Positions 57,379 through 64,000 of a stretch of 64,000 nucleotides of DNA are shown one piece after another. Origin of the DNA: Bacteroidota bacterium (GTDB taxonomy: Bacteria > Bacteroidota > Bacteroidia > Chitinophagales > BACL12). The DNA is taken from assembly GCA_031372705.1 (NCBI GenBank), contig JANMLV010000034.1:16948-80947 (forward strand). Direction: 5' to 3'. Under the pieces are notes generated by a model. That model was not told where the DNA came from. It saw only the letters and a list, made by a program, of their open reading frames with translations, and ran no database searches. The translations under genes and the position numbers were made by a program. The first letter of the stretch is position 1, and every line of letters begins with the position of its first letter.

Positions 57379-57407
57379 AGCGAAAGCAATTTAAAACTGC
57401 TTTCGCT
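57379..57407 (-). terminator. rho-independent terminator of the caspase cassette
   Basis: AGCGAAAGCA (57379-57388) pairs with TGCTTTCGCT (57398-57407). The adjacent plus-strand A-run gives a T-run after the hairpin on the minus strand. Confidence 0.7.
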
Positions 57408-57431: not shown

Positions 57432-58118
57432 TTATTTACATTTTTTTACATTCAAACTTAACTCATCGCTAAATGGATTTGGTCCGTTTGTTTTGTGTGT
57501 GGCATCAACACAAAGACCTTTATTAATGGCTGCAAGACAAATTGCAACTAATGCACCGGTTGTGGCAAGTGCAATTACACCAATAACAATTGCAACGGTA
57601 ACGGCAATCGTGATGGTTACCGGTTCTCTGTCTTTATACTCAACTCCTTTAGCGAATGACTTGTAACGTGCTTGCACATCTTTGTCTTTTCGGTTGCGCA
57701 ATAAATTGCCGATACGAGCAGCCTCTGCCCCACGAATAACCAAACGGAAGCGAACGCCCTGTTCCAAAGCCTCGAATGCTCTTCGGTCCCAATTTGGAGA
57801 ACCAACTGCAATTGCAATTTCATTTGTTGTTCCTTCAATTGCAGCAAATGCGCGAATTTGGTAATCCACTTTTCCAAAAGCCATATAATTCCATTTAATT
57901 TTAAATGTAACACGACCTTTATCGCCGGGTTTAGGCGCTTGGATTACTGTTGCACCGGCAAGAAAACTGTGATTGTCGAATGCAAAGCGACTGAATTTTT
58001 TACCGGCAGGAATACGCACTGTGTAAGTGTCAATACCGTTTTTCCAAGTAGGAATTGGACCAAATCCATCTGTATCAGCATGGGTTTTGGCTTTGTTTAA
58101 AATTGTTGTTTCTGACAT
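57432..58118 (-). CDS. hypothetical tail-anchored membrane protein (caspase-associated), no recognised family
   Basis: 228 aa with no signal peptide. Beta-rich N-domain (about residues 1-100), helical segment, Lys/Arg-rich linker LLRNRKDKDVQARYKSFAKGVEYKDREP, a 32-residue hydrophobic stretch VTITIAVTVAIVIGVIALATTGALVAICLAAI (nt 57525-57620), and a 30-aa tail with 2 Cys. Confidence 0.6.
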   Translation of the reverse strand: MSETTILNKAKTHADTDGFGPIPTWKNGIDTYTVRIPAGKKFSRFAFDNHSFLAGATVIQAPKPGDKGRVTFKIKWNYMAFGKVDYQIRAFAAIEGTTNEIAIAVGSPNWDRRAFEALEQGVRFRLVIRGAEAARIGNLLRNRKDKDVQARYKSFAKGVEYKDREPVTITIAVTVAIVIGVIALATTGALVAICLAAINKGLCVDATHKTNGPNPFSDELSLNVKKCK

Positions 58119-58153: not shown

Positions 58154-59083
58154 TTATTTTTTAGTAATTAATTTTTGCTGAGGGATATGTTTTTTTACCA
58201 CATTTGTTTTTGCTTTACGTTTTGCTTTTGTAGGTTTTCTTTGAGGTGAAATTGTTTTAGCAGATAAAAACGCACCTTTAAGAACTTTGATATTACCTTC
58301 CGATTGCGGAACTTGCGGAAAACCTTCTTTTAATAATCGACGACGCACTTCAATAACAATTTGTTGTAAACTCTTGCGATGTGTTTTTTCACTATTTAAT
58401 GTTTGTAATAAATGGTAAGTTAGTGCTCCGTTGTATCTACCATTAAAATATGCGTCGGCAGAAGTTTGATGTGAAGCGCAGCCACTTATTAATCCTACAT
58501 TAATATTTGAAACCGGTTTTGAAAATGCACGTGCATTGATGTGAGCAGCATTTGCAGTTTCTACTCTCCAGTTAATATCTGCAGGTGGAATTAAAAATCT
58601 TGCGCTGTTATTTGGCTCTTTTGCGACAAAACTTCTATTTTTTAATTGTCGCGTTAAGCCGCCTGAATGACAACTGTCTGAAACCCAAATAAAGGTTACA
58701 CCTTCAGGCACTTGACGAAATAAATTATTAAACTCGTTATCTGTTATAAAAGTGCTTACATCGTCCCAATTAAAATCAAATGGCACAACCGCTTCATCCA
58801 TTCCATCCACTTCGCCAATTTCGTCACGCGTAGCCAATTGTGTTCCGTGTCCGCTGTATTGGAAAAACAACCTATCGCCTTTTCTTGCGCCGGTAATTAA
58901 CCATTTTAAACGTTCCAAAATGTTGCGTTTAGTTGCACGTTCATCTACAAGTAATCTTATTTCTTGTTTTGAAAATGCACAGTGTTCCACTAAGTGCTTC
59001 GCCATGTCGGTGATGTCGTTAATGCATCCGTTTAAAGGAGCATCGGCATATTTATTTATACCAACTAATAATGCTTTGTTCAT
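58154..59083 (-). CDS. peptidase C14 caspase-family protein (orthocaspase/metacaspase-like), cytosolic
   Basis: ALLVGINKY, catalytic His in FFQYSGHGTQ (codon 58847-58849) and catalytic Cys in VSDSCHSGG (codon 58670-58672). p10-like SGCASHQTSADA...GALTYHL and a basic C-terminal tail. ATG at 59083; the track extension to 59173 would include the upstream terminator hairpin. Confidence 0.85.
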   Translation of the reverse strand: MNKALLVGINKYADAPLNGCINDITDMAKHLVEHCAFSKQEIRLLVDERATKRNILERLKWLITGARKGDRLFFQYSGHGTQLATRDEIGEVDGMDEAVVPFDFNWDDVSTFITDNEFNNLFRQVPEGVTFIWVSDSCHSGGLTRQLKNRSFVAKEPNNSARFLIPPADINWRVETANAAHINARAFSKPVSNINVGLISGCASHQTSADAYFNGRYNGALTYHLLQTLNSEKTHRKSLQQIVIEVRRRLLKEGFPQVPQSEGNIKVLKGAFLSAKTISPQRKPTKAKRKAKTNVVKKHIPQQKLITKK

Positions 59084-59173
59084 GTTTGTATTTTTTAATT
59101 GTTTAATTAATAACACAAAAATGTGGCAATAATAAAATTCGTGCAATAACCAATTATGGTGAATGCCAAGCAT

Positions 59174-59209
59174 AAAAAAAACCGAAACTTAATCGGTTTC
59201 GGTTTTTTT
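59174..59209 (-). terminator. rho-independent terminator after the response-regulator gene
   Basis: A8, CCGAAAC (59182-59188), loop TTAATCG, GTTTCGG (59196-59202), T-run. On the minus strand this reads as a hairpin plus U-run, 17 nt after the RR stop. Confidence 0.75.
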
Positions 59210-59225
59210 ATAAAGTGAAATAATT

Positions 59226-59867
59226 TTAAGTGAGTTTGTTTTTCAAAGCCTTTGCAACCGCTTCCGTCATTGAGTTTACATGTAATTTCTTGTAAATCTT
59301 TTTAATATGGGTGTGCACAGTGTCGTAGCCAATTTGTAATTCATCGGCTATCATTTTATAGCTGGAACCTTTCACTAAATAAGCAAGTACATCTTTTTCT
59401 CTGGGACTTAAATTAAAATCATCAGCCGTTTCAAATTTATTTTGCTTTTGAAATAATTCTAACACGCGTTTTGCAATTGATGGCGACATAGGCGCGCCAC
59501 CCAGCGATACTTCTTTTACGGCTTCAATTAGCTGGTCTAACGACTTATTTTTGAGTAAATAGCCCGATGCTCCGGCACAAATGGCATCAAATATTTTTTG
59601 GTCATCGTCAAACACGGTAAGCATTAAAATAGGAAGATCGGTGTTTGTTTTTCTAATTCTTTTAACGGCTTCAATGCCATTTATTCCGGGTAAATCAATA
59701 TCCATTAATACGACATTTGGCTGGTGTAATTCAACCAACTCTACTACCTGTGTATTATCAGGGTAAGCGCCACAGAACTCAAAGCCGCGCGTTGCATTAA
59801 ACAAAATGGAAAGTGATTCCCGAATCCTTATATTATCGTCGAATAATAAAACTTTAATGTTATTCAT
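59226..59867 (-). CDS. LuxR/NarL-family response regulator
   Basis: Receiver domain (LLFDDN..., VVLMDIDLPGINGIEA) plus a C-terminal LuxR HTH (LSPREKDVLAYLVKGSSYKMIADELQIGYDTVHTHIKKIY). Confidence 0.9.
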   Translation of the reverse strand: MNNIKVLLFDDNIRIRESLSILFNATRGFEFCGAYPDNTQVVELVELHQPNVVLMDIDLPGINGIEAVKRIRKTNTDLPILMLTVFDDDQKIFDAICAGASGYLLKNKSLDQLIEAVKEVSLGGAPMSPSIAKRVLELFQKQNKFETADDFNLSPREKDVLAYLVKGSSYKMIADELQIGYDTVHTHIKKIYKKLHVNSMTEAVAKALKNKLT

Positions 59868-59920
59868 ATTTGTAAAGGTCAGCTATTTTAATTTTTAAAT
59901 GAATCGCCAATCTTGGGTAA

Positions 59921-61750
59921 TTAAATTGACATGTTTACTGAAATTTTGGTTCCTTTACCCAAAACACTTTCAACAAGCAACACGGCATTAATTTCTTTTG
60001 CTCTGCGTTGTAAATTTATTAAGCCATTACCATTTATGCTTTGCTTTTTACCGACTTCAAATCCCTTGCCATTATCCATTAATGTGATATTTAATAACCC
60101 ATCATTATAATTTGCATTAAAAGTAACTTGCGAAGCTTCTGCATATTTAAACGCATTATAAATACTTTCTTTAAAAATGAGGTAAATGTTTTTCCGCTGC
60201 TCCATATTTAAACTAATTGCATTTGCTTGAGGGTCAATTACCGATTGATATACTGTATTTGAAGCTTGTTGCAATTCCGAAGCATAATTTTGAATGCGCA
60301 AGAACATTTTTTCTGAGCTGTCGTTATCGGGTTTAATTGCCCAAACAATATCGCTCATGTTTTCAACGGCTTCACCGCTTACTTCTTCAATTTTTGCCAA
60401 TAGTAGATTTACTTTATCGGCGTCGTTTTCTTTTTGCAATTTGGTAACGAGTTGACTAAAATAGGAAATGCTGCCCAGTGTAGAACCAATATCATCATGC
60501 AAATCAGAACTTATGCGCGACCTGTCGGATACTAATTGCTGTTCAAATTCCAATTTCTTTTTTAACTGACGACGATTAAACAACAAGAGCAAAATTGCCA
60601 AAAGCAAAATTGCGCCAACAATTATTCCGGTGTTGGTTAGTTTTTGTCGTTTTATGATTTGCTCTTTCTTTTCAGTTTCGTATACTGTTTGCAACTCGCT
60701 AATTTTTGCTTCCTTTTCTTGGTTAAAAACTGAATCGCGATAGGCAATATGCAATTGCATCATTATTTCTGCTGAGTCAAATTTACTTTGGTAACTAAAT
60801 ATATTGGAGAGGTATAAATAATTATCTTCAACTACTTCCAGTCGGTTCGCCTTCAATAATAATTCGTTACTTCTATTAAAATTTGTTGCAGCTTTATAGG
60901 GATTCCCTGTTTTGAAATAAAGTATACCTATATTGCTTAAACAAACCCCTAGTTCCGGTAACTCGTTTACTTCGAATATTTGTTTTGCTAATTCGAAATA
61001 AAAAAGAGCGCTATCAAAAATATTCAAATTGTTATAGGCGTTTCCTAAATTATTGTATATGTTCCCAATATTATCTTGTGCGGCATCTTCGGGAATAGAT
61101 TTTACAATTTGTTGCAAATAATTTATTGCCTTTCTTGGTTCATTAATATCGATGTATAAGGAACTTAAGTTTGCCGTCGATTGCAATAAATTAAGCGTAT
61201 CGCCGGCTTTTTGGGCGATATCAAAGCTTATAGTGTAATACTTTAATGCTGCTGTGGTGTTTTCGTTTTTTTGATAGGCTATTGCTAGTTGTCCGTTGTA
61301 TTTCGACAATAACGAACTGTTATTCAATTTTTCGGCTATACGTATTGACTCCAAATGATAATATATTGCAGAATCAAATTGTGCAGCATTATGAAATGCA
61401 CTTCCAATATTAGAATAAACACCTGCAATTTGTTCTTGATTGTTTAATTGCTTGCGAAAATATAGGCTTTGCTGGTAAAGTTTAACGGCGGCTTCAAAAT
61501 TACCTTTGTTTTTTTCTAGCAAGCCCAAACGAGTATATCCATCGCCGAGACCTTTTGTGTAATTAATTTCCTTTGCGAGCGCTATTGCTTTATCGGCTAG
61601 TATTTTGGCTGAATCGGGGTTGGTCTTTCGAAAATTAAAGCTTTGCGTATTTAGCTTGTTAATGTAGGCAGTGTCTATGTTATTGCCAAATGCATTCGCA
61701 AGGCAAAGCACAAAAAAGGAAGCCAACGTAATTAAATATTTCAATTGCAT
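59921..61750 (-). CDS. TPR-repeat sensor histidine kinase (HisKA_3/NarX-type)
   Basis: Signal peptide, about 350 aa of TPR repeats, one TM (GIIVGAILLLAILLLLF), a coiled coil, an H-box SSDLHDDIGSTLGSI and an ATPase G-box NGNGLINLQRRA...GKGTKISV. ATG at 61750. Confidence 0.85.
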   Translation of the reverse strand: MQLKYLITLASFFVLCLANAFGNNIDTAYINKLNTQSFNFRKTNPDSAKILADKAIALAKEINYTKGLGDGYTRLGLLEKNKGNFEAAVKLYQQSLYFRKQLNNQEQIAGVYSNIGSAFHNAAQFDSAIYYHLESIRIAEKLNNSSLLSKYNGQLAIAYQKNENTTAALKYYTISFDIAQKAGDTLNLLQSTANLSSLYIDINEPRKAINYLQQIVKSIPEDAAQDNIGNIYNNLGNAYNNLNIFDSALFYFELAKQIFEVNELPELGVCLSNIGILYFKTGNPYKAATNFNRSNELLLKANRLEVVEDNYLYLSNIFSYQSKFDSAEIMMQLHIAYRDSVFNQEKEAKISELQTVYETEKKEQIIKRQKLTNTGIIVGAILLLAILLLLFNRRQLKKKLEFEQQLVSDRSRISSDLHDDIGSTLGSISYFSQLVTKLQKENDADKVNLLLAKIEEVSGEAVENMSDIVWAIKPDNDSSEKMFLRIQNYASELQQASNTVYQSVIDPQANAISLNMEQRKNIYLIFKESIYNAFKYAEASQVTFNANYNDGLLNITLMDNGKGFEVGKKQSINGNGLINLQRRAKEINAVLLVESVLGKGTKISVNMSI

Positions 61751-61779: not shown

Positions 61780-62409
61780 TTAATTATCATCAGATGAATC
61801 CGCATCTGTTTGGGAGGTAGTGCCTGAACCTTTTCTCGTTAGGTTTGGCTTCCGAATATGTACTTCAATAAATTCAAAAGTAGAAGGATCGTAATCTTCA
61901 AGATTAAAGCTTCGCTCTGATGAACCCTGAGTTGTATTAGTCAAATTATAATACAATATCAATTTATGTTCAGTTGGTAATTCCTCAATAGTAACCGGCT
62001 GATTGGTAATGTTTAAATTCACTTTAAAAAACACGTTTACACCTGTTACCGGTGAGGACTTTATCCAGCAGAATGGCCGAGAATTATCATCTTCAGCAAA
62101 AAAGTGGTTAAGGTTTTGATTTAACCGCACTGTTACACTGCCTTGAATTGCATTACCATTAAATATTCGAATTGAGATTTTAGACTTATTGGAACTATAA
62201 TAGAATTTATATGGCTTGCCTTCTGCGGGAGTGGTGGCGTCGGCAGCAAGGGTATAGCAAATAATTTGTGTAGTAGGGTCATTAGAATCCGGTGTTTCTG
62301 TTTCGTTTTTTAAAACAGCTTTATTTGTTTCAATCATGCCTCTGACCCAGAACCAACATGTTTTAGTATTATAATCAATAAATATATATGGTTTATTTGC
62401 TTCTAACAT
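61780..62409 (-). CDS. hypothetical beta-rich cytoplasmic protein, no recognised family
   Basis: 209 aa with no signal peptide or TM. Acidic Ser/Asp tail GSGTTSQTDADSSDDN. Starts 11 nt after the S8 peptidase stop. Confidence 0.5.
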   Translation of the reverse strand: MLEANKPYIFIDYNTKTCWFWVRGMIETNKAVLKNETETPDSNDPTTQIICYTLAADATTPAEGKPYKFYYSSNKSKISIRIFNGNAIQGSVTVRLNQNLNHFFAEDDNSRPFCWIKSSPVTGVNVFFKVNLNITNQPVTIEELPTEHKLILYYNLTNTTQGSSERSFNLEDYDPSTFEFIEVHIRKPNLTRKGSGTTSQTDADSSDDN

Positions 62410-62420
62410 GTTTTAGTTGT

Positions 62421-63530
62421 TTAAATTGACGTGGAAAAATATTGTTTATTAACTCTTGATCTATTGCGCGTTGTAATTGATTCTGTTTGTAATTGCACAT
62501 TATCCATTAATAGCGAATTGAAATCTTCAGAAGTTGTTTGTAGAATATCTGATTTGTTTTCATAAATTATAGCACAAATTCCGGCTAGCATTGCGGCTGC
62601 TTGACTGCTGCCTGATAACACGGTGTAATCATTTGGACTATTTATGCCGGTCGACAAAGTATTTTCACCATAAACGGCAAATTGCTCTTTTACTTTAATT
62701 GCCGAATCATTAAAAATTCTTTGTGTGAAAAGTGAAAGATTACCTAGTTTGTCTTTTGAAACAGCAACAATAACATGCTTCAAATATGCAGGATATGCAA
62801 GGCCTGTTTCCGGAAATTTATCACTTTCTCCCTTAAAATATTTAAATCCATTTCCACCCGAACATATTACAGGAATTTTTTGGAGCCACAAAAAATTAAT
62901 CAACTTTTGTAAACGGTGATGGGCTGTGCATTGCGGGCGTTTAATGTTATCTAATGCATTATAGGCAATCAATACAATGTTTACCTTTTTTTGTTTATCA
63001 GATTCCGGCATTGTGGCATTGTATTTTATTATTTGCTCTAGGCCATCAGCAATTTTCCACCAAGTTGTGTATCCCTCTTTTTCATCGGTTACTTTTATAC
63101 TGACAATTTTTGCATCCGGTGCAACACCTCTAATTGCCGCTTGTTTTGTTTCTGTCTTATCTTTAGTAAAGTATGTTGCCTCCCCTTTCGATGCGCAAAT
63201 AATTCCGGCAAGATGTGTACCATGTCCATGAAAATCCATAGTTGAATTTGTATCTGTTAAGCCTGCATAATTCATTGAATGAATAACTTTGTCAGCTAAT
63301 AATACTTGTGTTTCATTTACACCCGTATCCAATAGTCCAATTACAGCTCCTTTTCCGGTTGCTATTGTCCCGTTTTTTACAGTTACATAATCCTTTGCAG
63401 TTTTTAATTCTTCAACATACTGTATCTCATCAGCTTCCAGTTTTAACAATGATATTGGTCTTGGATGAACAGAGAAAGCAGTTTGCTTCCGATCAAATGC
63501 TTCTATTTCTTCAAAAATAAAACTTCCCAT
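62421..63530 (-). CDS. S8 family (subtilisin-like) serine peptidase, no signal peptide
   Basis: Catalytic triad motifs GLLDTGVN (Asp), HGHGTHLAGI (His) and LSGSSQAAAMLAGI (Ser codon 62604-62606). ATG at 63530; the track start at 63578 is TTG. Confidence 0.8.
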   Translation of the reverse strand: MGSFIFEEIEAFDRKQTAFSVHPRPISLLKLEADEIQYVEELKTAKDYVTVKNGTIATGKGAVIGLLDTGVNETQVLLADKVIHSMNYAGLTDTNSTMDFHGHGTHLAGIICASKGEATYFTKDKTETKQAAIRGVAPDAKIVSIKVTDEKEGYTTWWKIADGLEQIIKYNATMPESDKQKKVNIVLIAYNALDNIKRPQCTAHHRLQKLINFLWLQKIPVICSGGNGFKYFKGESDKFPETGLAYPAYLKHVIVAVSKDKLGNLSLFTQRIFNDSAIKVKEQFAVYGENTLSTGINSPNDYTVLSGSSQAAAMLAGICAIIYENKSDILQTTSEDFNSLLMDNVQLQTESITTRNRSRVNKQYFSTSI

Positions 63531-63602
63531 AGATGTGTATTTACGCCACAAATCTAAAGGAATAAAATAAACAACCAAATAACCAATTCTGGGGATGCCG
63601 AT

Positions 63603-64000
63603 TTATTCTGCGCCGGTGTCTGTGTTTCCATTTACATTGCCATGCACAGAAATCATTCGCCAACCTTCGGGCAATGGACATTGTTTTTTGCTTTTAGTGC
63701 CTGCAATGCGGAGTTGTAGTGCGTTGTTATGCAAATTAACGGTTCCATCTGTATGCCCTCCATTGGCAACAGCCAATGCTTTAGTGATTTGCCAATTGCC
63801 GCTTGCACTAGAAAAAGTTTTTATTACTTTATTGCATTCGTCATCGGCTTCACCCATATTGGTGAATAAATTAATGTATTCTTTTTGCCATGAAGGCATA
63901 TAAGGCACTCCATAGTATTTATTTTTTTTATCAGGACAAGGTTCTGTACCACAGCAAGGCTCGTTGCAAATGGCACCGTATGCATCATTAATGTGAATCC
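63603..64000 (-). CDS. hypothetical Cys-rich protein, C-terminal fragment (gene continues past right edge)
   Basis: The minus-strand frame stays open from 64000 to the stop at 63603: ...IHINDAYGAICNEPCCGTEPCPDKKNKYYGVPYMPSWQKEY...GNVNGNTDTGAE. The track's GTG start at 63908 is probably internal. Confidence 0.5.
   Translation of the reverse strand, partial: IHINDAYGAICNEPCCGTEPCPDKKNKYYGVPYMPSWQKEYINLFTNMGEADDECNKVIKTFSSASGNWQITKALAVANGGHTDGTVNLHNNALQLRIAGTKSKKQCPLPEGWRMISVHGNVNGNTDTGAE

Follow-up and report, generated by a model that had tools for sequence, protein, structure and literature searches.

Intracellular serine proteases (ISPs) of the subtilisin type are held latent by an N-terminal pro-peptide. 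Its residues 6-9 carry the motif [LVI][IFLV]P[YFH], which extends across the active site (PMC6220982), and the proline pushes the scissile bond beyond the reach of the catalytic serine (PMC6220982; PMC3901451). One of these enzymes, Isp1, is reported to be inhibited by the all-beta protein IPI, which is not encoded beside the subtilisin gene and for which it is debated whether it is an inhibitor or a competing substrate (PMC3901451). In Myxococcus xanthus, the subtilase PopC has no signal peptide and is both periplasmic and secreted; PopD associates with PopC in a complex and controls it (PMC6434023). Bacterial gasdermins are activated when an adjacent protease removes a C-terminal peptide (bioRxiv 10.1101/2021.06.07.447441), and the agr locus exerts positive feedback on its own transcription (PMC8895600). 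Here, a locus is described that has features in common with each of these systems. It lies in a stretch of 64,000 nucleotides (nt) from a Bacteroidota bacterium of the order Chitinophagales (assembly GCA_031372705.1, contig JANMLV010000034.1, positions 16,948 to 80,947), hereafter the window. Its minus strand encodes a subtilase of family S8 (hereafter S8) and, directly downstream, an orphan protein of 209 amino acids (aa) with the working name X; the same strand carries all other relevant genes of the locus. An earlier note, made from the letters of the window, had drawn attention to this pair. The observation is real, better than chance, and larger than first described, since S8 and X are the invariant, promoter-proximal half of a four-gene operon, completed by a sensor histidine kinase and a response regulator. 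As a combination, this four-gene module, in which a protease and its cognate partner are placed under a two-component system, had not been described before.

Contigs carrying X or S8 were gathered by exact-protein look-up and by scanning GTDB genomes and Joint Genome Institute (JGI) metagenomes with a degenerate DNA pattern for the tail of X, and the hits were annotated with hidden Markov models (HMMs). All readable contigs with X, about 19 groups from Chitinophagales MAGs or from metagenomes, show one gene order: S8, X in one or two copies, a kinase with TPR and HisKA_3 domains, and a LuxR-type regulator. This order is kept down to 29-37 % identity in S8 and 21-30 % identity in X, and the gap between the two genes is 9-33 nt across loci. 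The duplicated X genes are found in L014 and L021 (loci are given by such numbers where they have to be told apart). The earlier note had considered that X might not be syntenic with S8 genes in other genomes; instead, X lies directly downstream of a member of this one S8 clade wherever the upstream flank is present, and it was never found without it. Its description of S8 and X as a coupled pair is correct as regards their adjacency, which is seen in all loci, and too narrow as regards the unit, which has four genes. The source genomes that have names are all Chitinophagales or unclassified Bacteroidota metagenome-assembled genomes (MAGs), and the four-gene unit is restricted to Chitinophagales. 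The scans for the tail pattern also gave three chance matches that lack an X gene: L018 (Polyangiales), L028 and L029.

In the window, the S8 gene occupies positions 62421..63530 of the minus strand (369 aa), with its ATG start at 63530 and its TAA stop at 62421-62423. A spacer of 11 nt (acaactaaaac), as the earlier note had stated, separates it from the X gene (61780..62409, minus strand), which starts with the ATG at 62409. Both are real genes, because purifying selection acts on both: in a close pair whose synonymous divergence (dS) is unsaturated, the ratio of non-synonymous to synonymous substitution (dN/dS) amounts to 0.13 in S8 and 0.11 in X. An alternative start for S8, the TTG at 63578, adds no hydrophobic stretch, so that the absence of a signal peptide in the earlier note holds for either start; this TTG is in any case unlikely to be used, because the inferred -7 box of the promoter (63549-63556) is downstream of it. 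At one locus in a single Chitinophagales MAG (L019, 6656-7941), S8 (an open reading frame (ORF) of 172 aa) and X (two ORFs of 121 and 127 aa) look broken, which could reflect pseudogenisation or assembly frameshifts.

S8 matches Pfam PF00082 with an E-value of 2.7e-27 (96.3 bits, cut-off 21.8). The three catalytic motifs reported earlier are all present, in the order Asp (DTG), His (HGTH) and Ser, the last reading GSSQAA instead of GTSMAxP. D68, H103, S309 and the oxyanion residue N227 are invariant among 14 members of the clade (alignment A3). Judged by its sequence, S8 is a divergent member of the S8A subtilases and appears catalytically competent. By hydropathy and domain searches, it lacks both hallmarks of classical secreted subtilisins, the signal peptide and the I9 pro-domain. 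The maximum hydropathy over 11 residues within the first 60 is at most 1.6 in 14 of 14 S8 proteins, compared with 2.6-2.95 for exported proteins encoded at the same locus (the kinase, an upstream lipoprotein and a DUF3108 protein), and S8 has no match to the I9 domain (PF05922) at an E-value of 0.1 or below. The earlier statement that there is no pro-domain is thus right for I9 and incomplete otherwise, since S8 has a conserved N-terminal extension of about 55 aa, with the pattern EIxxF....TAFxxHPKPI in the closer members and only the proline invariant throughout. Among solved structures, S8 comes closest to intracellular serine proteases (7y6m, 7xr8, 6f9m and 2x8j/2wv7) and to thermitase; the ISP structures are the top matches in the PDB and are weak (E 8.6e-11 to 7e-7), level with thermitase. 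The pro-peptide motif of ISPs, [LVI][IFLV]P[YFH], does not occur near residues 6-9 in any of the 14 S8 proteins, the sole match being VFPF at residue 39 of one member (P0011).

The location of S8 in the cell is a separate matter. The earlier note had concluded from the missing signal peptide that the enzyme is intracellular, and this step is unsafe, since PopC has no signal peptide either and is periplasmic and secreted (PMC6434023). The same precedent leads to a different account of the pair, in which S8 leaves the cytoplasm by a non-classical route and works outside it, and X is a cytoplasmic retention or inhibitory partner that is destroyed once export is licensed. PopD not only complexes with PopC but blocks its secretion (PMC6434023), the sensor of the module faces the periplasm, and other cargo of the inferred regulon described below is secreted (type IX secretion system (T9SS) proteins, in L022 and L024). 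On the other hand, the solved proteases nearest to S8 are cytoplasmic ISPs, and neither a TonB-dependent transporter nor any other exporter is linked to the module. Export control of this kind seems quite improbable.

X belongs, as far as the searches reach, to no family known so far. It has no match in Pfam, NCBIfam, PADLOC or PHROGs; 22 members of the X family searched against Pfam gave none either (best E 0.014, to an unrelated DUF), and the X profile has no match in the PDB. A word-seeded search of 5.8 billion proteins returned five relatives, and a full HMM scan of 1.84 billion representatives returned 25 matches at an E-value of 1e-3 or below, which are mostly proteins of 200-228 aa, the remainder being short fragments or weak matches to long repeat proteins. 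With the alignment of 22 sequences (A2), AlphaFold2 (AF2) gives a model of X with a predicted local distance difference test (pLDDT) score of 91.9 and a predicted template modelling (pTM) score of 0.88; with five sequences the pLDDT is 66. The predicted fold is all-beta, with 13 strands, some of them very long (149-169), and zero helices. Foldseek finds no match to this model in the PDB (best E 0.09, template modelling (TM) score at most 0.25) and none in BFVD. X is thus a candidate new fold, because a confident model matches nothing in either database. The earlier description of an unrecognised, beta-rich protein with an acidic Ser/Asp tail was accurate on each count, and the tail is in fact the most conserved segment of the family.

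Several identities proposed for X were rejected. It has no Pfam, PDB-profile or Foldseek match to I9 or BsuPI/IPI (PF12690), and a phage origin was rejected for the lack of a PHROG match and of a structural match in BFVD. It is unrelated to Y, the 228-aa orphan that partners a nearby caspase (hhalign probability 0.4 %). Nor is it likely to be the precursor of a ribosomally synthesised and post-translationally modified peptide: the radical-SAM cluster found near some of the modules does not occur in the window lineage, in L014 or in L022, X itself is confidently folded, and the "core" would be invariant. X has no signal peptide: its hydropathy is mostly below 2 (maximum 2.4), and the peak lies at residue 14 at the earliest in 20 of 22 members, inside the beta-strand region.

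Two short motifs stand out in the family. The first is N-terminal, A-N-K-P-Y in the window (residues 4-8; 62386..62400, minus strand). All 22 members have the family pattern x-[KR]-P-[YFH], and in 21 of them the proline is residue 5-8. In sequence, it resembles the pro-peptide motif of ISPs and stands at an equivalent distance from the N-terminus. The second motif is C-terminal, RKGSGTTSQTDADSSDDN in the window (residues 192-209; 61783..61836, minus strand), for which the family shows KG-x-GTT-x-Q-x-(D/E)AD-SS..; no other stretch of alignment A2 is conserved as strongly. In the AF2 model, residues 192-199 form a strand with a pLDDT of about 94, and the final nine residues average about 75.

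The reading that we favour, tentatively and at somewhat less than an even chance, is that S8 acts as an ISP-like subtilase in the cytoplasm and has in X a dedicated partner for latency, or a temporary inhibitor, which finally becomes its substrate. IPI and PopD are precedents for a subtilase with an inhibitory partner. X, made from the same transcript, would dock on S8 and keep it latent or direct it. Docking would occur through the free N-terminal x-K-P-Y, in the manner of the L-I-P-Y pro-peptide that blocks the active site of ISPs, with the difference that here it would be supplied in trans; the invariant tail KGxGTT..DAD might be an additional docking element. As a "temporary inhibitor", X would eventually be cleaved, as subtilisin pro-peptides are.

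The remaining two genes of the operon suggest when S8 and X would be made. The kinase gene (59921..61750, minus strand; 609 aa) adjoins the 3' side of X in all loci, and its product matches Pfam TPR_12, HisKA_3 and HATPase_c. It is predicted to consist of a signal peptide or anchor, a periplasmic TPR array, one transmembrane segment, HisKA_3 and HATPase_c. By eye, the N-termini of the kinases, such as ...LSAYSC of L014 or FFSC of L011, look lipoprotein- or Sec-like. The TPR array would then be periplasmic and possibly lipid-anchored, which would be an unusual sensor arrangement. The response regulator (59226..59867, minus strand; 213 aa) has a REC domain and a LuxR/GerE helix-turn-helix (Response_reg, 3.9e-24; GerE, 5.3e-17) and is the presumed operator-binding protein. 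Across loci, the kinases have about 610-650 aa and the regulators 213-216 aa. No terminator was found between S8, X and the kinase gene in the window, and a terminator-like hairpin with a T-run follows the regulator gene (59178..59200, minus strand). An Rfam search found nothing.

An 18-bp palindrome with the consensus ATCACC-N6-GGTGAT lies upstream of S8 in 11 of 11 loci, aligned by eye. In Bacteroidetes, the -7 promoter consensus is TAnnTTTG. Such an element follows the palindrome after 21-23 nt in 10 of the 11 loci, and L024 has the near match TAACATTG. In the window, the operator upstream of S8 is located at 63579..63596 and reads ATCCCCAGAATTGGTTAT on the minus strand. The element TAGATTTG (63549..63556, minus strand) matches TAnnTTTG and begins 22 nt after the operator, a spacing shared by 9 other loci, and is probably the promoter element of S8 (P_S8). 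A position weight matrix (PWM), in which the operator upstream of S8 scores 21.3, was built from the S8-upstream sites and scanned over the remaining sequence with a threshold score of 11. Shuffled 64-kb windows contain about 1.9 chance matches scoring at least 11, compared with scores of 15-21 for the three promoter boxes of the window, which share this one palindrome within 4.5 kb.

The second box (59903..59920; PWM 15.2) stands directly after the kinase stop codon and 35 nt before the start of the regulator gene, where it would serve a promoter P_RR. This regulator-upstream box, which was not used for training, is present in 10 of 11 loci, with TTTG or TTTA always at offset 26. In the window lineage (59867-59920 in the window; also L003, L005, L008 and L020), the regulator starts 35 nt past the operator and only about 5 nt past TTTA/TTTG, so its mRNA would be leaderless or nearly so in this lineage. 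The third box (59146..59163; PWM 16.9) lies 62 nt before the likely start of a caspase gene (ATG 59083); a box is found 51-62 nt before the caspase start in three of three readable loci, i.e., the window and, with TTTG at about offset 26, L005 and L008. Further boxes precede variable genes downstream of the regulator, namely those for a giant T9SS adhesin in L022, a 353-aa unknown in L023 and a Por_Secre_tail protein in L024. The box is centred near -43 and replaces the -33 element, which is the position of an activator site. From this co-localisation, we infer that the LuxR-type regulator binds the palindrome as a dimer and activates its promoters. Elsewhere in the window, the operator-like site GTAACCAATATTAGCGAT (2161-2178; PWM 16.6) is far from the module, has no TTTG at offset 26 and is probably a chance match. 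A scan for sigma-70 promoters found 33, with 25.7 expected; such a scan is uninformative for Bacteroidota.

Operators upstream of both the operon and the regulator gene argue for an autoregulated circuit. If the periplasmic TPR sensor were triggered, the regulator would activate P_S8, P_RR and the cargo promoters, and S8 and X would be made together with more kinase and regulator, i.e., in a positive feedback loop. The constant output of the circuit would be S8, X and the kinase, and its variable output, in the window, a caspase and its partner Y.

Several observations weigh against X as a latency partner of S8. The likeness of x-K-P-Y to the ISP motif extends over three or four residues, and position 2 is Lys or Arg here, whereas it is hydrophobic in ISPs. 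The AF2 model packs the conserved tail strand (192-199) of X, together with most of its N-terminus, into the fold at high pLDDT, so both motifs may be structural instead of serving in docking. S8 is single in L014 and L021, where X is duplicated, as would be expected of a substrate or product more than of an inhibitor acting in stoichiometric amounts. Autoinhibition could be performed by the conserved N-terminal extension of S8 itself, and, as PopC illustrates, a missing signal peptide is no proof of cytoplasmic action. The binding of the palindrome by the regulator is, moreover, argued from position. The main counterpoints among these are that X is duplicated and that both motifs are built into the predicted fold.

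The evolution of the locus is far from uniform, with a hot spot of divergence at S8 and X. Between the window and its close relatives L008/L020, S8 is 40-42 % and X 46-48 % identical, compared with 80 % for the upstream lipoprotein, 89 % for Mfd, 91-92 % for the MetC-like protein and 92-93 % for the regulator. The kinase is intermediate (74 % overall), with 70 % identity in the TPR part, 80 % in the cytoplasmic part, and 98 % in about 80 residues around HisKA_3. Within the window lineage, S8 identity is no higher than it is to the most distant modules (37-45 %). Neighbour-joining (NJ) trees of S8, X, the kinase and the regulator are congruent, and the window lineage is monophyletic in all four, which gives no sign of an import of S8-X by horizontal replacement and makes the hot spot look like divergence within the lineage. 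Gene-wide positive selection is not seen (dN/dS 0.1-0.3), and dS is saturated for the pairs that would be informative on the age of the hot spot. Between L008 and L020, dS climbs along the locus from 0.17 in S8 through 0.40 in X and the kinase to 0.86 in the regulator gene, a pattern suggestive of recent recombination by which the S8 end was introduced or homogenised. The hot spot is compatible with a co-evolving S8-X interface, with pherotype-like diversification and with conflict-driven change. If X is the latency partner of S8, the fast co-divergence of the two proteins relative to their neighbours would reflect a co-evolving interface.

The divergence pattern also bears on whether S8 and X interact at all. 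Co-transcription and synteny are all that is shown, and the two proteins might be no more than co-regulated outputs, or accessory regulators of the kinase, with X, for example, a kinase modulator in the manner of CpxP or KipI. The invariant tail of X co-occurs with the nearly invariant region around the HisKA_3 domain of the kinase. Conversely, the close spacing of the two genes and the strict order of S8 then X across lineages at 21-45 % identity speak for a direct relationship, as do the parallel excess divergence of S8 and X and the fact that X is never found apart from this S8 clade. We regard the absence of a direct interaction as very unlikely.

Another account takes the order of the genes at face value. 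In the logic of agrBDCA or comQXPA, the operon would be a cassette for the generation of a signal: S8 would process X, the product (e.g., the acidic C-terminal peptide) would be the ligand of the TPR sensor, and the resulting autoinducing loop would have the caspase pair or surface proteins among its outputs. TPR arrays are folds that bind peptides. The succession of processing enzyme, precursor, kinase and regulator, with a HisKA_3 kinase and a LuxR-type regulator, fits such a cassette, and so do the positive feedback implied by an operator before both the operon and the regulator gene, and the duplication of X in some loci, since precursors are often duplicated. The gradient of divergence, which is steepest in S8 and X and falls through the TPR domain and the cytoplasmic part of the kinase to the regulator, resembles that of pherotype loci. 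However, X is a folded protein of 23 kDa and not a short pro-peptide, neither S8 nor X has a signal peptide, and the module contains no transporter. The tail, which is the candidate signal, is invariant, whereas the signals of pherotypes vary, and an acidic 16-mer would have to pass the outer membrane as well. A cassette of this kind is therefore considered unlikely. In its most far-reaching form, the four genes would be a protein-based autoinducer circuit in a Gram-negative phylum, in which X or its product is freed unconventionally or by the lysis of kin, read by the TPR kinase and amplified via the operator, switching on cargo such as the caspase and its membrane partner. This seems more doubtful still; if true, it would be a cell-cell or danger signal tied to a cell-death-type output in filamentous Chitinophagales.

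The caspase pair lies downstream of the module on the same strand, at a distance of 2.6-4.3 kb, in keeping with the figure of about 3 kb given in the earlier note. The caspase-family (C14) peptidase is encoded at 58154..59083 (minus strand; Pfam Peptidase_C14, 1.1e-31). Its true start is probably the ATG at 59083, because the annotated start (59173, giving 339 aa) lies upstream of the operator, and the homologue in L008 begins at an equivalent MDKALLVG. Its partner is the orphan Y (57432..58118, minus strand; 228 aa), which has a C-terminal transmembrane helix and is followed by a strong terminator (57379..57407, minus strand). Y has no family match in Pfam, NCBIfam, PADLOC or PHROGs and forms only three clusters among 5.8 billion proteins. 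The pair is an optional insert between the regulator gene and a metC-like gene: the window, L005, L008 and L030 have it, and L003, L020 and L031 do not. Since the same palindrome precedes S8-X and caspase-Y, both pairs would belong to one inferred regulon, with the caspase as optional cargo, which explains their proximity.

The presence of two pairs of a protease and an orphan protein in one inferred regulon raises the question of whether X is a latent effector. In such a gasdermin-like logic, S8 would remove the tail of a toxic or pore-forming X, and together with caspase-Y this would constitute a death or anti-phage programme triggered by the kinase. Both proteases match PADLOC models, S8 the one named "subtilase" (1.4e-15) and the caspase the one named "caspase" (8e-21). 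The strands of the all-beta X are unusually long, its C-terminal peptide is conserved, and the S8/X pair diverges fast, like conflict genes. Against this stands the lack of any gasdermin or pore-former in the PDB among the Foldseek results for X, which also has no hydrophobic or amphipathic segment and lacks the N-terminal Cys that most bacterial gasdermins conserve for palmitoylation (none within the first 10 residues in any of the 22 members); on these grounds, membership of X in the gasdermin family is rejected. Furthermore, a protease and its substrate would be made from one promoter with no evident extra trigger, whole-gene dN/dS is low, and the module is vertically inherited in one order beside housekeeping genes, not in a mobile defence island. 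A protease-activated effector is hence an unlikely identity for X, and the role of a latency partner remains the one that we prefer.

The genes around the module differ between lineages. The outer neighbours are mfd, a DUF3108 gene and the gene for a metallo-beta-lactamase-like lipoprotein in the window lineage; cysS and an exo/endo-phosphatase gene in L011; cysS and dnaN in L014; and T9SS adhesins in L022. The lipoprotein and DUF3108 genes are not parts of the module, as they are absent from L011, L014 and L022-L024. The lipoprotein gene is upstream of S8 (63603-64000 in the window, where it runs off the end; complete in L001, 4530-5411) and encodes 293 aa with the lipobox LLSC, a HYHNDH motif (HxHxDH, metallo-beta-lactamase-like) and a Cys-rich CNEPCCGTEPC; no Pfam match is on record for it. 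The gene also holds a weak, coding-constrained operator-like site (63849-63866).

In L023-L025, the neighbours form a cluster of B12-radical-SAM, glycosyltransferase and methyltransferase genes. This divergently transcribed cluster abuts S8 in L023 (1-6948), L024 (1-6825) and L025 (1-3675) and is 4 kb away from it in L011 (1204-3758). It encodes B12-binding radical-SAM enzymes (two or three), along with a GT1 glycosyltransferase, a PrmA/MTS-like methyltransferase and an unknown protein of 317 aa. The cluster is treated as ancestral synteny; alternatively, there could be a functional link such as modification chemistry.

If X is indeed a latency factor in trans or an obligate substrate of S8, the module would represent a new way to keep a broad-specificity protease harmless, and intracellular subtilisins, which have so far been studied mainly in Firmicutes, would extend to Bacteroidota. 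The architecture of the operators would link a periplasmic TPR sensor to two cytoplasmic proteases, S8 and the caspase, both of which have an orphan partner. Only uncultured Chitinophagales have the module, which is rare, so its immediate impact is modest.

Among the systems with which the module can be compared, bacterial gasdermin operons also have a protease beside a beta-rich protein of about 200-270 aa with a short C-terminal peptide, and here a caspase-family protease is encoded nearby. They differ in that X has neither the gasdermin fold nor the N-terminal Cys, and in that the order is reversed, with the protease first. In addition, the proteases of the module have no repeat or NACHT sensor domain, and they are linked to a two-component system.

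The agrBDCA and comQXPA loci have the same four-gene order of enzyme, precursor, kinase and regulator, and ComP and ComA are of the HisKA_3 and LuxR type, respectively. The module would share their autoregulation, and in both cases divergence is concentrated in the two leading genes and in the kinase's sensor half. In the module, however, the "precursor" is a folded protein of 209 aa and the enzyme a soluble subtilase without a role at the membrane or in export; conservation is found at the putative signal end and not in the leader, and the host is Gram-negative and has an outer membrane.

PopC-PopD, compared by architecture only, is similar in combining a signal-peptide-less subtilase with a dedicated partner in a signalling pathway. 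PopC, however, has 50.8 kDa and an N-terminal part without recognisable domains, and the pair is controlled via the stringent response and the degradation of PopD, not via a linked kinase-regulator pair. IPI (BsuPI, PF12690), which acts on Isp1 of B. subtilis, resembles X in being small and all-beta, and it has been reported as an inhibitor of an intracellular subtilisin; X has no sequence or structural match to BsuPI, and its gene is always adjacent to that of the subtilase.

The ISPs of Bacillus and Planococcus have in common with the S8-X pair an S8A-type domain, the absence of a signal peptide and of I9, and a Pro-centred motif near an N-terminus. In ISPs, this motif is on the protease itself, whereas here it is on X and has a basic instead of a hydrophobic residue at position 2. 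The S8 of the module differs further in its own extension of 55 aa (HPKPI), in the weakness of the similarity (E about 1e-10), in its Bacteroidota host and in being encoded in a two-component operon. Of all these comparisons, the likeness of the x-K-P-Y of X to the ISP motif is the most specific mechanistic lead.

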